A stretch of DNA of 64,000 bases from a phage: the sequence record PX969468.1; one strand, written 5' to 3'. Shown here piece after piece: positions 8,501 to 64,000 of this stretch (position 1 is its first letter; each line of letters starts with the position of its first letter). The position numbers and the translations under genes were made by a program. The notes below the pieces were generated by a model that saw only the letters and a list, made by a program, of their open reading frames with translations, was not told where the DNA came from and ran no database searches.

Positions 8501-9316
8501 CCATGCTCTCAGGCAGGTACTCTCCTTGTCTATAGAAACTATGTCAACGTTCCAGAGAGTTGCGTACAGGAATATACAACATATCTTGGAGAAAAATTCC
8601 TGCGTTATGGAACAACGATAGGTGGTGTTTTCACATGGGGCCATTGGCAGCAGCTTGGCGGTAAGGGTATCACTTTAAAAACTCAAGGGTCCAATCTTGA
8701 ACCTGAGTTCACAATACACACAGGTGGTGGTACTGATGTTACCAACACTTCGAACATGCCTTCTAATACAGGCAGGTTGTACTATTGGGGTGATGGCGCT
8801 GATAGGAAGAATGTGTTTGAGTTTCAGATAAGTGATAACTCAACAGCCGCCAGCTGGGTATTCCACTGCGGAGCTAAGGCAGATGAGGCTAAATCAAGAT
8901 ATTTTGCTGTCAACGGCACGGTAGAATGTACCACTGTTAGCCAAAGTTCCGATAGAGACCTGAAGGATAATATAGAGGTCATACCTAACGCTCTGGAAGC
9001 AATTAGAAAGATGAAAGGCTATACCTACACCTTGAAAGAGAATGGTATGCCTTATGCAGGCGTGATTGCTCAAGAGGTTATGGAAGCATTGCCAGAGGCA
9101 GTAGGATCTTTCGTGAAAAGGAAGGAAATAGAAGGTCCTACTCAAGACGGTATTCCTCTGATGACCGAGGAAAGGTTCTATAACGTTGACTACGCAGCTG
9201 TAACAGGCTTGCTTGTCCAGGTTTGCAGGGAACAGGACGATAAAATAACCGCCCTTGAGGAGCAGGTTAAAAAATTGACAGAGGTTGTTACTGGATTGCA
9301 AGAGAAACTGAAGTAA
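5516..9316 (+). CDS. tail fiber/tailspike with C-terminal S74 intramolecular-chaperone autoproteolytic domain
   Basis: 1266 aa; C-terminal SDRDLKDNIEVIPNALEAIRKMKGYTYTLKENG...GVIAQEV hallmark of peptidase S74 chaperone domain followed by coiled coil; strong RBS; terminator downstream. Confidence 0.75.
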   Translation: MADIKVVRIESLPATTAVTEDDYLVVQQPDLTRRVKIGDVVHVDGTVSHVISFKEGGKLNGPMDFAYFEEEDLYLRWKGEFPHTVPALSSPYSDGGITDAAWMVYTDPSLREELESTIGASMIMTAEGQSVQDVMDVTVQTANDAKALAQRVDFGTVHTVGDVIHLDNFVGPAVIEEGRTTNYPSVAAGEKFLNGVVSRRDTTTVDGIFRGATSGAMYTIAVTNGVATTKRIALRDEFKRLEANTPTRTVIRAGDDLNTAGYLQLDATGRWGMWNQQTASWQPLAIEQGGTGARDAAGARINLGAFYKQRAALEPNFNINNLTGNQDGVYYQPMTAYATEANGYPAGSGAGHLIVWQNNANGGTGCRQEYYPFSNVDVWYLRTYQANTNQWTAWQPMVRPRNDDTFRSHIGLGPRNTPTFGHLYLSQSSADVKSASGIVNGDKYSADGVLEHGYRIYSEVRNDNKAWLTIHLHKGAKGSETHRYLGFREDGVLDCPKYMQVGDLTGQLTNWGLGEWIRSSGAERGFWGSKKAAKMVVWDGGMDESGNGTLEWGVYNNRKAKWEPLPQAAGGTGATTLADAQNLFKVPIAAGVKDFLTLPRTAGMEDGKYYPIIVRTDPYYAPSTGTDITIVTRSSSGNDPMNCATLQCHYRTGGWTDRGDSFYGVVNFYQNEKALLGMVAPTRGKQEYVAFYVEARAFPVSIYASRNVVEVFTREQDYQVGAVTDNQDGVKFVAPLQSADLNLAILGDNNTNTRPIVDFKGTSGFYTGGGTQWHYIGTAERYAVMSKMNMPKVELWADGLDYLCYGSPRKALFSNAGFQCASDGTEDLTNGTFTSKCGNGAGLKGQAEFRSTPEAGQVIVRDVVGSAHRFYNFNKDGTFSAPGGFVCHTGADWNNQFGNNNPSKIMAGNVNGPEGSMVVAGLSVGFSGNYAFQMAGRLDQLYTRSIEQGNHRAWNKVIQHRGQGLGTNDLNDYKGDREGFYHQEANAQAALDRNYPCSQAGTLLVYRNYVNVPESCVQEYTTYLGEKFLRYGTTIGGVFTWGHWQQLGGKGITLKTQGSNLEPEFTIHTGGGTDVTNTSNMPSNTGRLYYWGDGADRKNVFEFQISDNSTAASWVFHCGAKADEAKSRYFAVNGTVECTTVSQSSDRDLKDNIEVIPNALEAIRKMKGYTYTLKENGMPYAGVIAQEVMEALPEAVGSFVKRKEIEGPTQDGIPLMTEERFYNVDYAAVTGLLVQVCREQDDKITALEEQVKKLTEVVTGLQEKLK

Positions 9317-9323
9317 CTGTTCT

Positions 9324-9349
9324 GCCCTCGCTTCGGCGGGGGCTTTTTG
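9324..9349 (+). terminator. rho-independent terminator (UUCG tetraloop hairpin plus T-run)
   Basis: gccctcgc-ttcg-gcgggggc followed by tttttg directly after stop codon at 9314-9316. Confidence 0.7.
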
Positions 9350-9355
9350 TTTGTA

Positions 9356-9384
9356 TTGCGTATTAACTCAAAATCTGGTAAAAT
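9356..9384 (+). promoter_or_regulatory. sigma70-like promoter with extended -10 (TTGCGT-N17-TAAAAT, TG at -15/-14)
   Basis: motif caaaatYTGGTAAAATA shared with 14866-14894 and 21197-21225. Confidence 0.45.
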
Positions 9385-9415
9385 AGCTATCATGATTGTT
9401 TAACCTGGAGGCACA

Positions 9416-10006
9416 ATGTTTTTATGGGAAAGGCCTAGATACCTTCCAGATATTAGATTGGAGCTGCTGGCAGATATTGTTACGTTTAAAAGTCCGTTTA
9501 CAGGTAAAACGCAAAAAGTGACCTATGCCACACCTAACTGGAAAGGCACTTTGACGGTTTCCAATATCAGCGAGTCACAGCTGCTAGAGCTTAAGAGCTT
9601 TGTTGATCAGGTGTATAAAGATGGGAACATTTTTCTTATTAAAACGTACGGTCACTCAGTAACAGCTAATGAGCCAATCGCCCTTGGGCCTACTGGTAAC
9701 GACGATTTTTTGAAGACGGTCGGATGGGAGCCAAACAGAGACATAGCCAGAGCTGGGGATAAAATATCTGTCAATGATGAATTGAAAGTGGTAACAGCTC
9801 CAGTGCGCAGCGATGGTGTTGGGTCTGCTGTCATAAGCATATCCCCAAGACTTAGAAAACCTATTGCCGCAGGGGACACTATGAAGATAATAACTCAATC
9901 CCCAAAGGGTAGGTTTCATATCAGAGATATTTATAAAATTAAGCAAAAAGTCGATGCTATGCAAAAAGGTGATAATATAGTTATCAACTTCTTTGAGGAT
10001 TTCTAA
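9416..10006 (+). CDS. hypothetical tail/baseplate protein
   Basis: 196-aa ORF with RBS (ggagg) in structural operon; weak resemblance of KGTLTVSNISES to lambda gpL-type motif, not relied upon. Confidence 0.35.
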   Translation: MFLWERPRYLPDIRLELLADIVTFKSPFTGKTQKVTYATPNWKGTLTVSNISESQLLELKSFVDQVYKDGNIFLIKTYGHSVTANEPIALGPTGNDDFLKTVGWEPNRDIARAGDKISVNDELKVVTAPVRSDGVGSAVISISPRLRKPIAAGDTMKIITQSPKGRFHIRDIYKIKQKVDAMQKGDNIVINFFEDF

Positions 10007-10007
10007 G

Positions 10008-10559
10008 ATGATTAGAGCGCCATTAGATAATTTATTTCTTGAAAAGCTGGAGCTTGATAGTGTTGAGATCTTAATTGCTGCAAAGCTAGAGCTACCAACA
10101 GGTACTGTCAGGGTGTGCTCAGGAACTGGTGTTGTGGTGATTGAGGGGCAACATTTTATAGGGATAGGTGGATCAGCAACATTGACCGCTGTGTCTGAGA
10201 AAGATGCCACCAACTTCGGGTCTGTGGTAGCAACATTGAACGGGTTTGATCCAAAGTATGTAGGTGATCTGCTGAAGACGGAGTATTCGGGTTGTCGTGC
10301 CACGTTGTATATCACAGCTATGGAGAATGGTTTACCTGTTACAACCAATGGCTTGTTTGACGGCCTTATAACAGACATGGCTATTCAGACAGGGGAGAAT
10401 AGTGCTTTGTCCATATCCATATCTTCCATCTTCAACAGCTGGTTAAGAGGTTTTCCTTATCGGTACACAGAGGAGAGCCATAGCTCAAGAAACGATAATG
10501 ACAGATTTTTTAAATATGTGGATCAGGTGGCAAGCCGCCCGATCATTTGGGAGGTTTAA
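10008..10559 (+). CDS. hypothetical tail/baseplate protein
   Basis: ORF track starts at TTG 9993; ATG at 10008 with GAGGA RBS chosen; in structural operon. Confidence 0.35.
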   Translation: MIRAPLDNLFLEKLELDSVEILIAAKLELPTGTVRVCSGTGVVVIEGQHFIGIGGSATLTAVSEKDATNFGSVVATLNGFDPKYVGDLLKTEYSGCRATLYITAMENGLPVTTNGLFDGLITDMAIQTGENSALSISISSIFNSWLRGFPYRYTEESHSSRNDNDRFFKYVDQVASRPIIWEV

Positions 10560-10984
10560 TGAGCACACACCCTCGTTTAGTGGACTGGCAAGAAAGATTG
10601 TGGAAAGTGTTTGACGAAGAAGCCACCGTCCCGTTTGAATGGGGATTCCACGATTGCTGCACTTTTGCGGCTAAGTGTGTTGATGCCCAATACGGAACAG
10701 ATTTTCTTTCTAACTTTGAAGGAACGTATAAAACAGAGTTGGAAAGCAAGAGATGGTGCATGCTTCGTTTCAAAACCACACATCTGCCTACTATTTTTGA
10801 TCTCTTTTTGACTCGATTGGATACTCCTAAACAGGTTCAGCGTGGTGATATTGTTATTTTCGAAGGTCTGAACGGGCTCACCGCTGGTGTGTTCTGGAAC
10901 AACCAGATTTGGGCGAAAGGTGATAAAGGGATCTTTATGTTCGACATGAAAGATTCTATCGTTGTTGATGTCTGGAGGTATTAA
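10559..10984 (+). CDS. hypothetical tail-associated protein (possible papain-like Cys motif FEWGFHDCC)
   Basis: TAATG-coupled start at 10559; ORF track start 10547 is TTG; motif FHDCCTF and GDIVIF weakly NlpC/P60-like. Confidence 0.3.
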   Translation: MSTHPRLVDWQERLWKVFDEEATVPFEWGFHDCCTFAAKCVDAQYGTDFLSNFEGTYKTELESKRWCMLRFKTTHLPTIFDLFLTRLDTPKQVQRGDIVIFEGLNGLTAGVFWNNQIWAKGDKGIFMFDMKDSIVVDVWRY

Positions 10985-13900
10985 TGCCAATTGCAATGAT
11001 TGATAACATCGTTGCTTCTGCAAGATCTTCGAGCTATGACTGGAACGCATCCAAGGCAGCTCTGGCTGACAGCCTGAACACTGTTACCACCAGAACCCTT
11101 GATAAGATTTTCGAAGGCAACAAATCTTACAGAAGTCAACAAGATAGACAAAAACTTCTCAGATCTTCTGCTGCACCTTGCTCTGTAGTATATGGGAAGA
11201 CACGTACATCTGGATTGCTTGCGTTTTTAGAGCAGGACAGGGACAGAACCCTTCATTGTGCTATTGTTCTTGCCAATCATCCCTTGGAAGGTATAGAAGA
11301 TATACTTATCGACGGTAATCCTATTTCCTCGTATGGGGATTTGGTATCGTGGGAGTTGCATAACGACAGGAAAACCTCTGATCCTTTCATGGGCACACAC
11401 TGCCCTTCGTGGTCACCAGACATGATAGGTAGAGGGATCAGTTGGCTACGTGCCAGCTTTAAGTTTGACCCTAACAAGTTTCCTTTTGGGTTGCCAAACG
11501 TTACACTTGTCAAGGTTGGTAAAAAATGTTATGATCCTCGTATCAGTAAAGAGGTGTATACCAACAACGCTGCCTTGGTGATTCTGGACTATCTAAGAAC
11601 GTACCTTAAATGTCCTGACGAAACCATCAACTGGGAGTCCTTCAAGGAAGCTGCCAACATATGCGACGAGGCTGTAAAAAACGCGGACGGAACCAGTGAG
11701 CGCCGTTACACCATTAATGGTGAGTTCGACATGGACGAAGCACCAGCAAGTATTATGGCAGAAATGCTGAAGGCTTGTGGTGCAGATCTTAGCTATGTAG
11801 CTGGCAAATACGGTCTGCTGGTAGGTGCATACTATGGCCCGGCAACAATGACACTGAGTGAGGACTGTGTTTGCGGTGAGGTTAAGATCTATCCTGAAGC
11901 CTCCTTCGACAAAAGATCAAACACAATAACTGGGAGATTCACCAGTCCAACCAAAGGGTATTCTGAAACAGACTTCCCATCGGTGTTCGTACCTGAATGG
12001 GTAGAGAAGGACGGAGAAAGAAAGATAATTGATATAGATTATCGTTTTGTTACCAGTCCTTATCAGGCTCAGCGTGTTTCCGCAATATTCTTAAGACGTG
12101 CCAGAGCTGGCAGGATTATTGAAGTAACCTGCAATATGCGGGGTTTTAAATTTAAGCCTGGGCGTTACGTTACGATGGACCTCCCAAGTATTGGTATAGT
12201 GGGCCAAGAAATGAGGGTTCTTGAATGGGAGTTCACCAAAAAGGGCGGTGTCAAGGTAAAACTCCGTCAAGATGCTAAAGAGTGGAATGATGCCACAGGG
12301 CAACTTCCGGATTCTGGAGATGTGGATATTCCGATATCCCCGTCCGGTGTAGCTCAACCGCAAAACTTCAGATACTCTGTTCTTCAAGCTGGGGAAGTAA
12401 CTCATGGTGTTTTGGCTTGGGACAACGTTGGAACTTATGCTCAAAATATTGTGCAGGTAAGAAAGAACGGAGAGATTATTTGGACAGCGCAAACAGTCGA
12501 GCAGTTTGTCCGCGTAGAAGGATTGACCAAAGGGTCATATACAGCAACCGTGGTTGCAACATCTTATAAGGGTGGTGTATCTCCAGAAGCCTACTGCGAG
12601 TTCAACATTCAAGCACCTGAAGCTCCTGTTTCTGTAGAAGTTAAGCAGGGATACTTTGCTATCACCTTGATTCCGCACAGCAGGGACTTAGCAAGTGTAA
12701 GCACCCAGTATGATTTTTGGACATCTGGTATGACAAGGTTGCCTGACACAAGTGATGCAACCGTTACTTCAAAAGCCACCCGTATGGGTGTTGGTTCAAC
12801 TTGGACATCTGAAGGTCTGCAGAACGATAAGATTTATTATTGGTATATTCGAACCACAAACGCTTTTGGTAGTTCTCAGTTTGTAGAATGCGCTGCACGC
12901 TGCTACACCTCTATTGAAGATTTGATGCCTCAGATAGATGCTGAATTTAAAAAGACAGAAACTTATAAAGAGTTGATGAGCACTTTAGATTCCTCTATCG
13001 AGGAGGTTGAAAATCGTGTCATAGAGCTTAACAAGTACATGGACGGAAGGGTAGATGAGGCATTCCAACAACTTGGAGATAGGATAGGTGCGGTAGTTAC
13101 AGAGACAACTCAGAAGTTTGAGGATGTCAATGGAAATATCACAGCTCTGGATAGGAAACTTGTTGCTGCACAGAACAAGTTCACCAACGATCTGAACACT
13201 GAAAGTGGAAGACTGGCATCCCTGATCGAGACAACCAATAAAGCAACCACTGATCTTCTGAACAAAAAGACAGAGGCTTTAGACGAGAAATTGGTTGCAG
13301 CCAAAGGGGAGTTGGTAGAACAAATAAGTGGTGTGGAGAGCGGATACCTTGCCGGAGATAAAACTCTAGATGGCAAGATCAATACCCAGAGAACGGAACT
13401 TGATGCAAGCATCTTAAGCACCAACCAGGCGACAGTGGATCTTCTCAACAGGACATCTGAAACTCTGGATCAAAAGATCAGTCAGACAAACGCGACGGTA
13501 TCTAAGAACTATACCACCCTTGATGGTAAGATAACTACCGCAAAAACTGATCTCAATACCTTGATTGCCAATACCAACAAGGCCACCACAGATTTGTTGA
13601 ATCAGAAAACCTCTGCACTGTCGGAGCAGATAACTTCTGCACGTGGGGAAATTTCTACCAACAAACAGGCGATTAAGGATTTAGATGGGAAGCTGACCTC
13701 CACAAAAACAGCACTGGACGCTACAATCTCCGATACCAACAAAGCAACCGTGGATCTTATTAACGGCACAGCGTCAGCTATTCGTCAAGAACTTGCTGTT
13801 GCTAAGCAGGAGATCATTGATGATGTCGGTGATGTGTCAGAGCTTAGAGCTGCAGTAGCTACAACATCTAAGGCTGTGACAGACTTAGAGGGCAAAGTAA

Positions 13901-14823
13901 ATGCTCAATGGGGCACAAAAATACAGGTAGACTCCGCAGGGAATAAGTATGTGGCAGGTATCCAGTTAGGCATGGAAGGCTCTGGAGGCCAAGTTCAGTC
14001 ATATTTCATGGTTAGCGCAAACAACTTTGCGGTATACAACCCAGGCAATGGAACAGCAACCCTTGCTTTCGCAATCAAGAACAACCAAGCGTTCTTGAAA
14101 GACGCTTTTATAGAGAACGGCACGATCTCTTCTGCCAAGATCGCGCAAGAAATTTCGTCAAACAACTACGATGGCAATGGGTACCACAAATACGGTTGGT
14201 ATATTAACAAGAACGGGCACGCCCAGTTTATGGATGTGTGGGTGAAAGGTAACATCAACGCTAGTGCAGGTAACTTCACAGGGGCAGTTAACGCTACCAG
14301 TGGCACCTTCCGTGGAGATGTTTATGCCAACAATGGTAGCTTTAGAGGAACCATAGATGCAACAGGAGGTACATTCCGTGGACGTGTAGAAGCTTCCGTT
14401 ATCCGTGCTAACCAGTTCGAAGGTGCGATTGTTGCACACAGGACTTACGGAGATTGTGCTCCAGTATACAACTCCCAGCAAAGGGTTTGCCGTTGGAGGT
14501 GGAGATATGTAGATAACGTTTCAGGTCAGGGTAAGAACGTAACATTCTTCTTTAAACTGAATGGTACTCTTGCCAGCTCCCAGCTTAACGTTTGGATAGC
14601 CGGACATCAAATCCTTGCAGGCAAGAAGTACGGAAACGACAACAACGGCATGTGTGCGGTAGGGATAACAGGTCTTGGTGAACAAACTATAGACATTATC
14701 GTCGAGATTTACACACCATGGTCAACGTCAAGTGTGACAGGGGTTACAATATCTTGTCCAACCGTAATAGTTAGTCGTTCAAACTCTAGCCTCCAGGGAC
14801 CTTGGAACGAGTCTCATGACTAA
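10984..14823 (+). CDS. long tail fiber-like protein with internal coiled-coil repeat array and GxFxG-repeat tip
   Basis: 1279 aa; about five ~40-aa repeats (LDGKITT.KT.L...I..TNKATTDLLN.KT.AL) then repeated G(N/T/S)F(T/R)G motifs; TAATG coupling to upstream gene; terminator downstream. Confidence 0.5.
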   Translation: MPIAMIDNIVASARSSSYDWNASKAALADSLNTVTTRTLDKIFEGNKSYRSQQDRQKLLRSSAAPCSVVYGKTRTSGLLAFLEQDRDRTLHCAIVLANHPLEGIEDILIDGNPISSYGDLVSWELHNDRKTSDPFMGTHCPSWSPDMIGRGISWLRASFKFDPNKFPFGLPNVTLVKVGKKCYDPRISKEVYTNNAALVILDYLRTYLKCPDETINWESFKEAANICDEAVKNADGTSERRYTINGEFDMDEAPASIMAEMLKACGADLSYVAGKYGLLVGAYYGPATMTLSEDCVCGEVKIYPEASFDKRSNTITGRFTSPTKGYSETDFPSVFVPEWVEKDGERKIIDIDYRFVTSPYQAQRVSAIFLRRARAGRIIEVTCNMRGFKFKPGRYVTMDLPSIGIVGQEMRVLEWEFTKKGGVKVKLRQDAKEWNDATGQLPDSGDVDIPISPSGVAQPQNFRYSVLQAGEVTHGVLAWDNVGTYAQNIVQVRKNGEIIWTAQTVEQFVRVEGLTKGSYTATVVATSYKGGVSPEAYCEFNIQAPEAPVSVEVKQGYFAITLIPHSRDLASVSTQYDFWTSGMTRLPDTSDATVTSKATRMGVGSTWTSEGLQNDKIYYWYIRTTNAFGSSQFVECAARCYTSIEDLMPQIDAEFKKTETYKELMSTLDSSIEEVENRVIELNKYMDGRVDEAFQQLGDRIGAVVTETTQKFEDVNGNITALDRKLVAAQNKFTNDLNTESGRLASLIETTNKATTDLLNKKTEALDEKLVAAKGELVEQISGVESGYLAGDKTLDGKINTQRTELDASILSTNQATVDLLNRTSETLDQKISQTNATVSKNYTTLDGKITTAKTDLNTLIANTNKATTDLLNQKTSALSEQITSARGEISTNKQAIKDLDGKLTSTKTALDATISDTNKATVDLINGTASAIRQELAVAKQEIIDDVGDVSELRAAVATTSKAVTDLEGKVNAQWGTKIQVDSAGNKYVAGIQLGMEGSGGQVQSYFMVSANNFAVYNPGNGTATLAFAIKNNQAFLKDAFIENGTISSAKIAQEISSNNYDGNGYHKYGWYINKNGHAQFMDVWVKGNINASAGNFTGAVNATSGTFRGDVYANNGSFRGTIDATGGTFRGRVEASVIRANQFEGAIVAHRTYGDCAPVYNSQQRVCRWRWRYVDNVSGQGKNVTFFFKLNGTLASSQLNVWIAGHQILAGKKYGNDNNGMCAVGITGLGEQTIDIIVEIYTPWSTSSVTGVTISCPTVIVSRSNSSLQGPWNESHD
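13080..13810 (+). repeat. in-frame tandem repeat array (coiled-coil repeats) inside fiber gene; boundaries approximate
   Basis: repeated peptide NKATTDLLN/NKATVDLLN/NQATVDLLN at regular ~40-aa spacing. Confidence 0.5.
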
Positions 14824-61858: not shown

Positions 61859-62181
61859 CAGAGATCATCGTTTCAACTGCAGGGTATGTATTCCTGACAA
61901 TCATTGCGCTGGCTATTCTGGTGGCGGTGTATGGATTTGTTATCCTGCCCATTCTTGAGACATTTAGTTTGTGTCGGTGTTGGAGAAAAGCTTACGGTCC
62001 ACAACCATGGAAGGACTGGCCCCACCTGGTGCGCTTAGCGTTCTCTTATGCTTACGATCACTCCAGCAGTGCATGCATAACCGGATACCACGCCCACAAC
62101 TGGAGCTGGGAAGGGTTGAGGAAATGGAATGTTACAAAGACCATACCTCTGCGCATGTACAAAGGAAAAAGGAGGGATTGA
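61855..62181 (+). CDS. small membrane protein
   Basis: N-terminal hydrophobic segment GYVFLTIIALAILVAVYGFVILPIL. Confidence 0.35.
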   Translation: MTEIIVSTAGYVFLTIIALAILVAVYGFVILPILETFSLCRCWRKAYGPQPWKDWPHLVRLAFSYAYDHSSSACITGYHAHNWSWEGLRKWNVTKTIPLRMYKGKRRD

Positions 62182-62825
62182 TGGGGATACCTGTTAAAGA
62201 CAGAAAAATATGTGGTCGTGGAGTAAACGATTTAAAAGACAAAGTCCCAATGTACCAATCTGTTAATGGTAAGAGAGTACCAGAACCTCACTATGCTACA
62301 TGGAAAGCATTATTCCAGAGGTGCTACGGCGATAACTCAAAGTACCATACAGGTTGTGAAGTTGTAGAAGATTGGTGGTTGTTCTCAGAATTCTGGAAAT
62401 GGATGGATACACAAGAGTGGAAAAGAGACGCTAAGAAGTTCACTCTTGACAAAGACCTGAAAATCCCCGGAAACAGAATATACTCCCCAGAAACATGTAT
62501 GTTTGTTCCACCACAAATAAACACCTTATTTGGCATAAGACAGGCAGCACGAGGGGATTTACCTTTGGGTGTGACACTTAGAAAAGATGTAAACAAGTAT
62601 CTCGTGCATTGTCATCAAGATGGAAAAATTGTTCATGGTGGTCATTTCGATGATCCGCAGATAGCACACAAGGTGTGGCAAGAAATGAAACTTGAGGAGA
62701 TGAAGCTTCAAGCTATTAAAAACAAAGATGAGATTTGGCTGTTCGCCATTAAACGTGCAATAACTATCCTTGAGAATGATTTGAAAAATAATAAGGAGAC
62801 TATAACATTGGTGAAATTTATTTAA
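62181..62825 (+). CDS. AP2-domain protein, homing-endonuclease-like architecture
   Basis: ATG at 62181 after AAAGGAGGGA (ATGA overlap); C-terminal AP2-like segment GVTLRKDVNKYLVHCHQDGKIVHGGHFDDPQIAHKVWQE; upstream part of the 61971 ORF judged non-coding. Confidence 0.45.
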   Translation: MGIPVKDRKICGRGVNDLKDKVPMYQSVNGKRVPEPHYATWKALFQRCYGDNSKYHTGCEVVEDWWLFSEFWKWMDTQEWKRDAKKFTLDKDLKIPGNRIYSPETCMFVPPQINTLFGIRQAARGDLPLGVTLRKDVNKYLVHCHQDGKIVHGGHFDDPQIAHKVWQEMKLEEMKLQAIKNKDEIWLFAIKRAITILENDLKNNKETITLVKFI

Positions 62826-62889
62826 GATATTTATGGTGGTATTTATTTTAAAATTATAAAAATTTTAGGTGATGAGGGAAAATATGTAA

Positions 62890-63340
62890 TGGATTTTCCC
62901 TTATTTATCAGATATTTGCAGATATTTGGAAATCCTTAGAAAATCAGAAAATGGATCGAAAACTAAAATGGATTTTTCAGAGTAGGCGCGACAAGCTGAA
63001 TAACTCATCCTATCGTTTGCACCATATTCCAGGCCACCATTATAGATTTCCCACACATGCTAACCTCCCTCTACTAGAACTTCCTCCACTTACCCTTGAC
63101 CTTCTATGGTAACAATCTAACCACTATCTTGAAGTTGCGGTGCAGCTTTCCAGGTACTCGATCTACTTTTCATTTCAGGGCTTGGATTTTCTGAAAATTT
63201 TTCTCGATAAATTTCTCAGTACTCGATCTGTTTTTCGTTTTCTGAATCGGATTTTCTGGAAATCGTTCCGGATCTAGGCCTGAAATTTTTAGGGACGAAA
63301 TCGATTTTTCGTTTTCAGAAATGGATTTTTAAAATTTCTA
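62890..63340. repeat. AT-rich array of direct repeats and ATTTTC/GAAAAT palindromes (iteron-like)
   Basis: tandem cagatatttg x2 (62908-62927); ~66-bp units at about 63150 and 63216 each containing agtactcgatct...ggattttctgRaaat; palindrome attttc-tg-gaaaat at 63185-63197. Confidence 0.6.
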
Positions 63341-63442
63341 TATGGGAATATTTTAGTGGATACTATTTTATAGGAAATTGTTACGGAGGGTAATTAGCGT
63401 GCTAATTAAATTTATTAAATGCGAGGAGTTCTCATTTAGAAT

Positions 63443-63461
63443 TTTGAATGATAATCATTCT
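63443..63461. promoter_or_regulatory. Fur-box-like palindrome, copy 1 (15/19 to GATAATGATAATCATTATC)
   Basis: ttgAATGATAATCATTcTC. Confidence 0.3.
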
Positions 63462-63578
63462 CGTTTGCAGAATAACGGGCAGGCCCGGTGATTGTCTCCC
63501 GGCCCCTACTGCCCCGGCTTGTTATTATAGTAACACACAGGACAAAGAAAGCAAGAAGTTTTTGCATAAATTTTTAGA

Positions 63579-63597
63579 CGATAATGATAATCGTTCT
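63579..63597. promoter_or_regulatory. Fur-box-like palindrome, copy 2 (17/19 to GATAATGATAATCATTATC)
   Basis: GATAATGATAATCgTTcTC; both copies followed by ...tgcag and a GC-rich segment ccggtgRttgtctccc. Confidence 0.35.
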
Positions 63598-63675
63598 CAT
63601 TTCATGCAGCGCCCATCCCCGGTGGTTGTCTCCCCCGTCACCGGTGCCTGCCGTCCTTTCGATATGTATATTGTG

Positions 63676-63998
63676 CCACCTGGCGGGGCCGCTGTCAACA
63701 CTTTTCAAAAAATTTTTTCTAACCTGATGCGCTAACCGCTGCAACCTGGCGGGGCCAGCCTGGCAGGACCTAACTGACCAGGTAGGGGAGAATGAAGGCT
63801 TGCAAACCTGGTGGGCCTATGCTATAGGATAGGTAACAATTGAAGAGGAGGTACAAAAAATGAAAGGTAATATATGATCCCCCTGGAAAATGTAGCTATT
63901 AATGACACTGAGGCTATCGCCCTGGTTGAAAAGGCTATGGCGGGAGCGTTGGAACATAAAGAAGAGTACGAAAAAATGATGGTTAACCTGGCAGGGGC
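63676..63998. repeat. GC-rich iterons AACCTGG(C/T)(G/A)GGG(C)C, four copies
   Basis: ccacctggcggggcc (about 63676), caacctggcggggcc (about 63741), aaacctggtgggcc (about 63802), aacctggcagggg (about 63984). Confidence 0.5.
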
Positions 63999-64000
63999 GG
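63873..64000 (+). CDS. hypothetical protein, 5' partial (runs off window end), preceded by 5-codon micro-ORF
   Basis: ATG at 63873 opens MIPLENVAINDTEAIALVEKAMAGALEHKEEYEKMMVNLAGA...; GAGGAGG RBS serves an upstream MKGNI micro-ORF (63859-63876) overlapping the start. Confidence 0.3.

Follow-up and report, generated by a model that had tools for sequence, protein, structure and literature searches.

Near-consensus Fur-box arrays in a conserved noncoding region of an rV5-like phage and in other large virulent phages

Why would a strictly lytic phage carry what look like binding sites for Fur, the iron-responsive regulator of its host? The question is raised by two palindromes in a 64,000-nucleotide stretch of phage DNA (sequence record PX969468.1), which is referred to here as the window. 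The palindromes lie in a noncoding gap, and an initial annotation of the window had proposed that they place a transcript running into the open reading frame (ORF) at 63873 under iron control. The window belongs to a Vequintavirus of the rV5/FFH2 type, around the palindromes it is 90–98% identical to FFH2, PDX, rV5_ev168 and the BASEL phages. Vequintavirus relatives are strictly lytic myophages of about 138 kb. According to the list of ORFs and the annotation of FFH2, the gap interrupts a long cluster of small rightward early genes. The map in the rV5 genome paper shows a 'non-coding' box at this place without interpretation, and the promoter table of the same paper has no entry within the gap (PMC3606486).

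Two Fur boxes and their homologues

Both palindromes are present as quoted in the initial annotation, save that the first starts at 63444 and not at 63443. Site 1 (ttgAATGATAATCATTcTC, 63444–63462) matches the 19-bp Fur consensus at 15 of 19 positions and site 2 (GATAATGATAATCgTTcTC, 63580–63598) at 17 of 19. Site 2 is the sole place in the window with three mismatches or fewer to this consensus, shuffled sequence gives an expectation of 0.05. To be independent of a preset consensus, a weight matrix was built from genome sequence. It was derived from 14 intergenic regions of Escherichia coli K-12 that serve canonical Fur-repressed operons (fepA-fes, fepD-entS, fepB-entC, fhuA, cirA, fecA, fecI, ryhB, fhuE, exbB, fiu, fhuF, tonB and sufA). 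A palindrome-constrained motif search by expectation maximisation, started from 150 random seeds, converged on the 21-bp motif AAATGATAATnATTATCATTT, in which position 7 is T at a frequency of 0.59 and G at 0.25.

In the 21-bp frame sites 1 and 2 become box 1 and box 2 (Table 1), which score 23.1 and 25.1 bits. The training sites score 13.1–23.3 bits with the same matrix (median 19.0). In 100 first-order Markov simulations of the window the maximum was 11.4 ± 2.3 bits and the highest value was 18.5 bits. Boxes 1 and 2 outscore nearly all of the training sites and far exceed the simulated maxima; they are excellent Fur-box matches, well beyond chance, and the observation is stronger than the initial annotation had stated. 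Box 1 shares ATAATCATTCTCGTTT with the Fur site of E. coli fhuA, and the genuine fhuA, ryhB and exbB sites have the half ATCATTCTC(A/G)TT in common with the phage boxes. A further match of 16.0 bits at 12027–12047 is probably due to chance, as it falls inside an ORF of 1279 amino acids (10984–14823) and below the simulated maximum of 18.5 bits.

The boxes belong to a repeat unit, as had been described: copies of the box (90% identity over 20 nt) and of CCCGGTGRTTGTCTCCC (94% over 17 nt) are repeated 134–136 bp apart. Boxes 1 and 2 are separated by 136 bp, and a degenerate third box, box 0, is spaced 29 bp from box 1.

Sensitive blastn searches show that about 60 nt, comprising box 1 and the core that follows it, are 80–88% identical to unannotated DNA of other genera. 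These are Certrevirus (CR3, PcCB7V and KaOmega), Seunavirus (SSE121 and LNA4) and Mydovirus (Mydo); further matches are found in unclassified Vequintavirinae (ABPH49 and W70), in Phapecoctavirus (ukendt and phAPEC8) and in an Aeromonas phage. In each relative the element occupies a comparable gap of about 1 kb inside a rightward gene cluster. All relatives have a high-scoring box (16.9–27.0 bits) 41 nt before the invariant GGTGWTTGTCTC, as seen in CR3, SSE121, Mydo, PcCB7V, contig L030, phAPEC8, ukendt, ABPH49, W70 and the Aeromonas phage. Box 1 likewise lies at -41 from the GGTG of its core, and box 2 lies at -39 from the GGTG of a second core. Many relatives contain additional boxes exactly 29 bp apart, at -70, -99 and -128, so that arrays often comprise 2–4 boxes; box 0 sits at -70, the position of the second box in these relatives. 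In Certrevirus a distal box is found at -137, beyond a small GC-rich insert. A scan with anchor words for more Vequintavirus loci returned four unrelated chance matches only.

The 8-bp spacers between boxes lack conservation. Within the 21-bp box the information content per position is 1.26 bits, compared with 0.41 in the flanks, which indicates that it is the palindrome that is under selection. At 20 of 21 positions the phage consensus can be reconciled with that of Fur, with two near-ties at position 1 (G 0.51, A 0.45) and position 7 (G 0.51, T 0.48).

We consider it likely that host Fur binds these boxes and that they have been kept for that reason. Binding is suggested by their near-identity to validated operators, and their retention for this purpose by their conservation together with their independent presence in unrelated phages, which is described below. 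A Fur protein encoded by the phages themselves was rejected, since these lineages showed no homologue when 50,697 phage records were searched by tblastn with E. coli Fur. A captured host promoter was likewise rejected, as blastn of the region against 5,426 E. coli genomes gave no match.

Promoters, cores and possible roles of the boxes

If the boxes were a classical operator, Fur on box 1 (and on box 2) would repress an overlapping rightward promoter, and the core RNA and genes downstream would be made at low iron only. The candidate TTGAAT-N18-CAGAAT has box 1 exactly in its spacer, and its -35 element is retained in about two thirds of the homologues. In the second unit TTTGCA-N19-GATAAT could serve, with its -10 element within box 2, and three hairpin variants have G-U pairs that are workable on the plus strand only. 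However, the first candidate matches at 8 of 12 positions only, which is below the threshold of the promoter scanner, and A at -11 or T at -7 is lost in 7–8 of the 21 homologues. The -10 element of the second candidate reads GATAAC in four of the five Vequintavirus sequences (FFH2, L025, L029 and L032). The distal boxes (-70 to -137) are without a promoter of their own and their spacers are unconserved. The promoter that overlaps box 1 is therefore weak and poorly kept, the strong promoters lie 50–80 bp off on the other strand, and we regard an operator of this kind as decidedly unlikely.

The ORF at 63873, to which the initial annotation had assigned the iron-controlled transcript, has its own likely promoter 200 bp to the right of box 2. 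This promoter (TTGCAA at 63800–63805 and TATAGG at 63823–63828) overlaps no Fur box and is followed by the Shine-Dalgarno sequence GAGGAGG, both elements being contained within 63800–63860. In the relatives, too, the right-hand end of the gap contains a rightward promoter. A classical operator that lies over the promoter of the ORF at 63873 is for this reason not supported. The wider idea of a virulent phage that responds to Fur survives in part: the matches exceed chance, they are conserved, and binding by Fur is well founded as far as sequence can indicate, but the boxes as the operator of this ORF are not supported.

The best promoter match in the gap is on the minus strand (TTGACA-N17-CACAAT). 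The 22 nt upstream of it are 82% A+T, and its predicted start is at about 63663. A second, putative leftward promoter (63554–63524, predicted start about 63517) has a suboptimal spacer and falls below the scanner threshold; its position is homologous to that of clearer promoters in the relatives. Equivalent leftward promoters are found just to the right of the core in CR3, SSE121, Mydo and others, and these fit the early-promoter consensus with an UP element that has been reported for Certrevirus (PMC7344957). Since the strong nearby promoters point leftward, the boxes lie between tandem leftward promoters. Box 2 occupies about +62 to +82 of the strong promoter and about -65 to -85 of the second, and box 1 occupies about +52 to +72 of the second. 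The single box of SSE121 is about 62 bp upstream of the point where a further leftward promoter is predicted to start.

We tentatively propose that the palindromes are genuine, selected sites for Fe2+-Fur, that two strong boxes and one weak box make up a small array within a noncoding region that is conserved and has a control function, and that they may act in cis through leftward transcription. A role in cis is suggested by the exact distance between box and core. Each box lies about 40 bp from a conserved core, between predicted tandem leftward promoters of the sigma-70/UP type. In iron-replete cells Fur dimers would fill the boxes and form, in cis, a roadblock or insulator against leftward noncoding transcription, and they might also block rightward read-through from upstream genes. 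In iron-starved cells apo-Fur would depart, and the transcription pattern of the region would shift. That the boxes serve at this locus as such a roadblock or insulator, relieved when iron is low, is the more doubtful part of the proposal.

Bound Fur could also have the opposite effect on transcription, by displacing H-NS from the A/T-rich gap and so activating early promoters nearby whenever iron is present. G+C content is 34% in the left part of the gap, compared with 44.5% for the whole window, with local minima of 27%. The boxes lie upstream of the UP-like elements of leftward promoters (box 2 at about -75 and the single box of SSE121 at about -62), and at locus L121 an array is found between divergent promoters. 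Tandem Fur boxes upstream of ftnA reportedly reverse silencing by H-NS, a finding attributed to Nandal et al. in 2010. However, with the matrix used here the sequence upstream of ftnA reaches no more than 7.3 bits, and this known example looks quite different. Counter-silencing appears improbable, and the ftnA array was rejected as a model for the phage boxes on account of its poor score.

The cores that follow the boxes were considered as possible RNA elements, the initial annotation having described hairpin-prone, GC-rich sequence after each box. Within the core GGTG.TT and GCA are invariant across the 21 homologues. Compared with shuffled sequences the GC-rich stretches of either strand are no more stable, with folding z-scores of +0.09 and -0.81 for core 1 and of -1.30 and -1.87 for core 2. 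RNAalifold found no consensus structure in the 21 homologues (-1.49 kcal/mol, 3 pairs). A search of Rfam gave a chance match only (E = 1.3) in the region of the window and none at six homologous loci. A scan of 62700–64000 found no intrinsic terminator-like sites (0), though promoter-like sites are present. A structured small RNA or cis-regulatory RNA on the 3' side of the boxes was therefore rejected, and the description as hairpin-prone is not upheld.

In contig L032 homology begins exactly at the core, and the boxes to the left of the core have been replaced. Since this contig keeps the core, the core and the leftward promoter appear to form a module that is able to exist without a box. The cores of Seunavirus and Phapecoctavirus (L005, L002 and L023) read GGTGTTTGTCTCGCGAT/C, and the -10/+1 region of ryhB reads TTATTGTCTCGCGATCAGG directly after its Fur box. 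The resulting identity of 12 nt (TTGTCTCGCGAT; ryhB promoter at L012 4010–4030, minus strand) is probably a coincidence.

Other promoter types were considered for the core. A FecI-type (extracytoplasmic function) promoter was examined because GATTGTC is also present at the fecA promoter; judged by eye, the spacing from GAAT to TC is 21 nt, compared with 17 at fecA, and the candidate was not accepted. Sigma-54 and sigma-E promoters were likewise rejected by eye, their spacing being unfit. No transcript map for the Vequintavirinae was found in the literature searched.

Table 1. Positions of the boxes, cores and promoters of the noncoding gap in the window
Feature	Position	Strand	Basis and remarks
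Noncoding gap	62826-63860 (~1 kb)	no strand	ORF list and FFH2 annotation; contains all boxes, cores and promoters
Box 0, degenerate, AAATGCGAGGAGTTCTCATTT	63417-63437	no strand	15.6 bits; 29 bp upstream of box 1
Weak candidate rightward promoter, TTGAAT-N18-CAGAAT	63444-63473	+	8/12, below scanner threshold; box 1 in spacer
Box 1, GAATGATAATCATTCTCGTTT	63446-63466	no strand	23.1 bits; site 1 in the 21-bp frame
Core 1, GCAGAATAAC..GGGCAGG..CCGGTGATTGTCTCC..	63467-63522	no strand	80-88% identical to noncoding DNA of other genera
Second leftward promoter, putative, TTGCTT-N19-TATAAT	63524-63578	-	Read from sequence; A/T-rich 63555-63578
Box 2, TAATGATAATCGTTCTCATTT	63582-63602	no strand	25.1 bits; site 2 in the 21-bp frame
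Core 2, ..CCCCGGTGGTTGTCTCCCCC.., diverged second copy	63603-63662	no strand	Direct repeat D9, 94% over 17 nt
Strong leftward sigma-70-type promoter, predicted, TTGACA-N17-TGgCACAAT	63670-63722	-	10/12, extended -10, UP-like element
Likely promoter of the ORF at 63873, TTGCAA-N17-TATAGG	63800-63828	+	Read from sequence

The ORFs that flank the gap contain no Pfam domain and no recognisable DNA-binding or initiator domain, and they belong to PHROG families of unknown function. Iron-related neighbour genes were rejected on these grounds. An ORF of 284 amino acids at 61971–62825 on the plus strand matches HNH homing endonuclease families (phrog_953, E = 2.4e-64). It is missing from most relatives, whose matches start at query base 120–122 (about 62920 in the window), just beyond it, and it resembles a mobile insertion that borders the gap on its left. 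T5 also has an HNH gene inserted between repeat regions. An ORF of 51 amino acids is encoded leftward at 62901–63056 on the minus strand with a good Shine-Dalgarno sequence; it corresponds to ORF181 of FFH2 and belongs to phrog_35702, a family of unknown function. No other coding sequence is a candidate target of the leftward promoters. A conserved leftward gene under the control of the boxes was rejected, as this ORF is limited to Vequintavirus and diverges fast.

Several other repeats are found within or near the gap. At 63144–63330 there are three direct repeats of 65–74 nt (..ACTCGATCt..TTTTC.TTT....GGATTTTCTG..). They could be a repeated noncoding RNA or, by analogy, a decoy like the pseudo-ToxI of the rV5-like phage phiTE. 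The short motif AAATGGATTTTT occurs at 62966, 63298 and 63319, and a similar unit is present in the Seunavirus LNA4 (L034, about 1080–1110). The GC-rich motif ACCTGGCGGGGCC occurs six times, at 63678–63691, 63744–63771, 63806–63819 and 63986–63999, with a copy also in phage W70 (L037). Two of the copies are the spacers of promoters predicted on either strand, one leftward (63698–63670) and one rightward (63800–63828).

A second noncoding element with strong conservation, ACTACCGGCGATCCACCTTCC...GTTAGCCCCGCCTTTTCGCCGTGGGGTGGCG, lies to the right of the core (L004 1649–1725 and homologues in L002, L003, L005 and L033–L037). It is present in all of the genera except Vequintavirus and has no Rfam match. 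It is preceded by a repeated CTTTACAnnTCTTTACAAA motif, which also follows the Fur array of the jumbo phage RaK2 (L045). Among the database records that match the region of the window, sixteen named 'Campylobacter phage' (MG0656xx; host C. jejuni) share 96–98% identity with the DNA of this E. coli Vequintavirus here. Mislabelling or contamination of the assemblies is the most likely explanation.

Fur-box arrays in other phages

The palindrome is not confined to the relatives of rV5. The counts given here are raw counts from phage collections that are rich in enterobacterial phages. A blastn search with a single box matched 867 phage records at 2026 places, mostly in Escherichia, Salmonella, Vibrio and Klebsiella phages of 105–152 kb; among the matches listed, most are at places without an annotated feature. 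A scan of IMG/VR with a perfect box returned at least 120 stretches. Among the matches listed, 43 of 119 new loci are clusters, with at least two boxes above 16 bits within 120 bp, and the densest has seven boxes in 190 bp. The array-bearing contigs of IMG/VR carry different portal, adaptor and terminase PHROG families, and some are podovirus-like. The jumbo phage RaK2 has four boxes above 16 bits and the T5-like phage KPP2018 has five. The Vibrio phage ICP1 has two moderate boxes of 18.1 and 17.3 bits (L165, 727–796), 49 bp apart, in a noncoding stretch of 1.3 kb at the start of the genome record. Array loci include L038, L061, L096, L121, L107, L091 and L045 (RaK2); in L038, L096 and L121 the array is upstream of the terminase-portal genes, by about 0.6 kb (L096) to a few kb.

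One of the IMG/VR loci is a T5-like phage. In T5 itself (NC_005859.1, L158) the annotated injection stop signal (iss) at 9140–10149 holds boxes of 20.0, 27.0 (AAATGAGAATCATTATCATTT) and 21.7 bits at 9551–9710. Repeated half-boxes are also present, and the known DnaA boxes lie directly beside the array. A comparative study by Davison places the shear point of first-step transfer at about 9618, within 'DRD' repeats, and does not mention Fur (10.1101/866236). This shear point falls inside the Fur-box array. Literature searches on Fur boxes in lytic phages, on titration of Fur by phages and on Fur with first-step transfer gave nothing relevant.

The same palindrome is thus arrayed in unrelated phages, which points to a shared host factor and not to a lineage-specific phage protein. 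It could still be argued that the boxes are sites for something other than Fur, namely iterons or operators of a phage-encoded protein, for example at a replication origin, with a likeness to Fur boxes by coincidence or mimicry. Regular palindromic repeats (29 bp, up to 4 copies) beside strong promoters in a long noncoding region recall lambda-type iterons, the array of the T5-like phages adjoins a cluster of DnaA boxes, and position 15 is almost always C, which it is not in host sites. A chance match of 23–27 bits is however very improbable, and phages with unrelated portal and terminase families share the palindrome. No DnaA box within one mismatch is present in the gap, no cluster is present in its homologues, and the flanking genes lack any recognisable DNA-binding or initiator domain. 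A replication origin at this locus was rejected on the absence of a DnaA-box cluster and because the GC skew of the region is uninformative. We consider sites for a protein other than Fur to be quite improbable.

If Fur does bind, the boxes may serve mainly to remove it from the host, an alternative that the initial annotation had also named. The replicating genome, at hundreds of copies, would titrate Fur in trans, de-repressing iron uptake and RyhB and feeding iron-dependent enzymes. The phage boxes outscore most host sites, their number ranges from 1 to 7 by lineage with variable spacing and unconserved spacers, the arrays are often away from promoters, and they are found in many large lytic phages of enterobacteria and vibrios. 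Fur boxes cloned on multicopy plasmids are said to de-repress fhuF, in the Fur titration assay attributed to Stojiljkovic et al. in 1994. Against this, the proximal box holds an exact distance to the core across large evolutionary distances and there are just two strong boxes per genome in this window. T5 degrades host DNA within minutes and yet has an array, and de-repressing host genes would be pointless there. A Fur sponge seems unlikely, although less so than the other alternatives.

A cis role through leftward transcription must also be weighed against several observations that speak against it or against Fur as the bound protein. Position 15 clearly departs from the Fur consensus, being C in 95% of phage boxes and A (0.59) or C (0.25) in E. 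coli; shared descent may account for this, or a binding protein that differs slightly. As a repressor Fur normally sits over the -35 and -10 elements, and to act as a roadblock between +50 and +170 is unusual for it. The leftward promoters themselves are predicted. Among other lineages no constant relation holds between arrays and predicted promoters, several arrays being 100–400 bp away or between divergent promoters; a role independent of promoters fits this better, and models of that kind stay alive. Box spacing also varies between lineages (29, 35, 37 and 39–45 bp), so no single architecture is conserved.

It is quite possible that near-consensus Fur-box arrays are a general and unrecognised class of cis-element, located in long noncoding regions of large virulent phages of gammaproteobacteria, which would recruit the abundant Fur of the host to phage DNA and couple a DNA transaction to iron status. 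The members of such a class would be rV5-like, phAPEC8-like and T5-like phages (the last at the injection stop signal), RaK2-like jumbo phages, several uncultured podovirus-like phages and possibly ICP1. Candidate roles are transcriptional insulation, arrest or timing of DNA entry, counter-silencing and sequestration of Fur. As judged from the sequences compared here, the notion of host Fur being engaged by a virulent phage is well founded; it is apparently unreported and would extend to T5 and many other phages.

Sites for host regulators on phage DNA are known for prophage cargo and for the nutrient genes of cyanophages. Iron sensing by strictly lytic coliphages is undescribed in the literature searched. 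The arrays suggest an unrecognised link between phage infection and host iron status. If Fur occupies them, the 'non-coding' block of 1 kb that has been unexplained in rV5-like genomes since 2013 would gain a testable function, and the classic unsolved injection-stop signal of T5 would gain a new and concrete candidate factor. Iron availability would also become a variable for phages used in therapy and biocontrol, many of which are rV5-like or T5-like; an infected host offers little iron, and the supply in the gut varies.

Relation to known systems

The Fur operators of E. coli (among them fhuA, ryhB, fecI, exbB and fhuF) contain the same 21-bp palindrome, and the phage boxes score equally well or higher. 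The host operators overlap the -35 and -10 elements, whereas the phage boxes are discrete, at least 29 bp apart, without convincing promoter overlap and carried by a lytic phage. Where Fur sites cluster in the host, an offset of 3 or 6 bp is usual (Chen et al. 2007, PMC2189734).

Tandem boxes at ftnA are reportedly a further example of a Fur-site array that acts at a distance from the core promoter. In contrast to the ftnA region, the phage boxes are separated and close to consensus, and given its score of only 7.3 bits the precedent is conceptual only. Lambda-type origins have several palindromic repeats at regular spacing in a noncoding region, which recalls the 29-bp spacing of the boxes in the relatives; in the window only boxes 0 and 1 are 29 bp apart. 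They differ from it in that here no adjacent initiator gene or DnaA boxes were found and the repeated sequence is the site of a host regulator.

Fur boxes have been identified on temperate phages. The stx1 promoter carried by these phages contains a Fur site, and a Fur site is also present at the sitABCD operon of lambdoid coliphages (PMC6969025). Both are host Fur sites borne on phage DNA, as proposed here. They are single classical operators of cargo that benefits the host and is expressed from the prophage, whereas the present array is noncoding, without a cargo gene and on a virulent phage.

Repeat region 3 of T5, with the iss, shares with the rV5-like gap a long, conserved, repeat-rich noncoding region in a large lytic coliphage, with boxes that match the Fur matrix. 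T5 differs in the DnaA boxes beside its array and in its two-step entry of DNA, neither of which is seen or known in rV5-like phages.

Lytic cyanophages carry sites for host nutrient regulators (PhoB boxes and NtcA sites) at the promoters of auxiliary metabolic genes. They resemble what is suggested here, in that the transcription of a lytic phage is wired to a nutrient sensor of its host. The regulator and the nutrient are different, and the auxiliary metabolic genes served by the cyanophage sites are identifiable.

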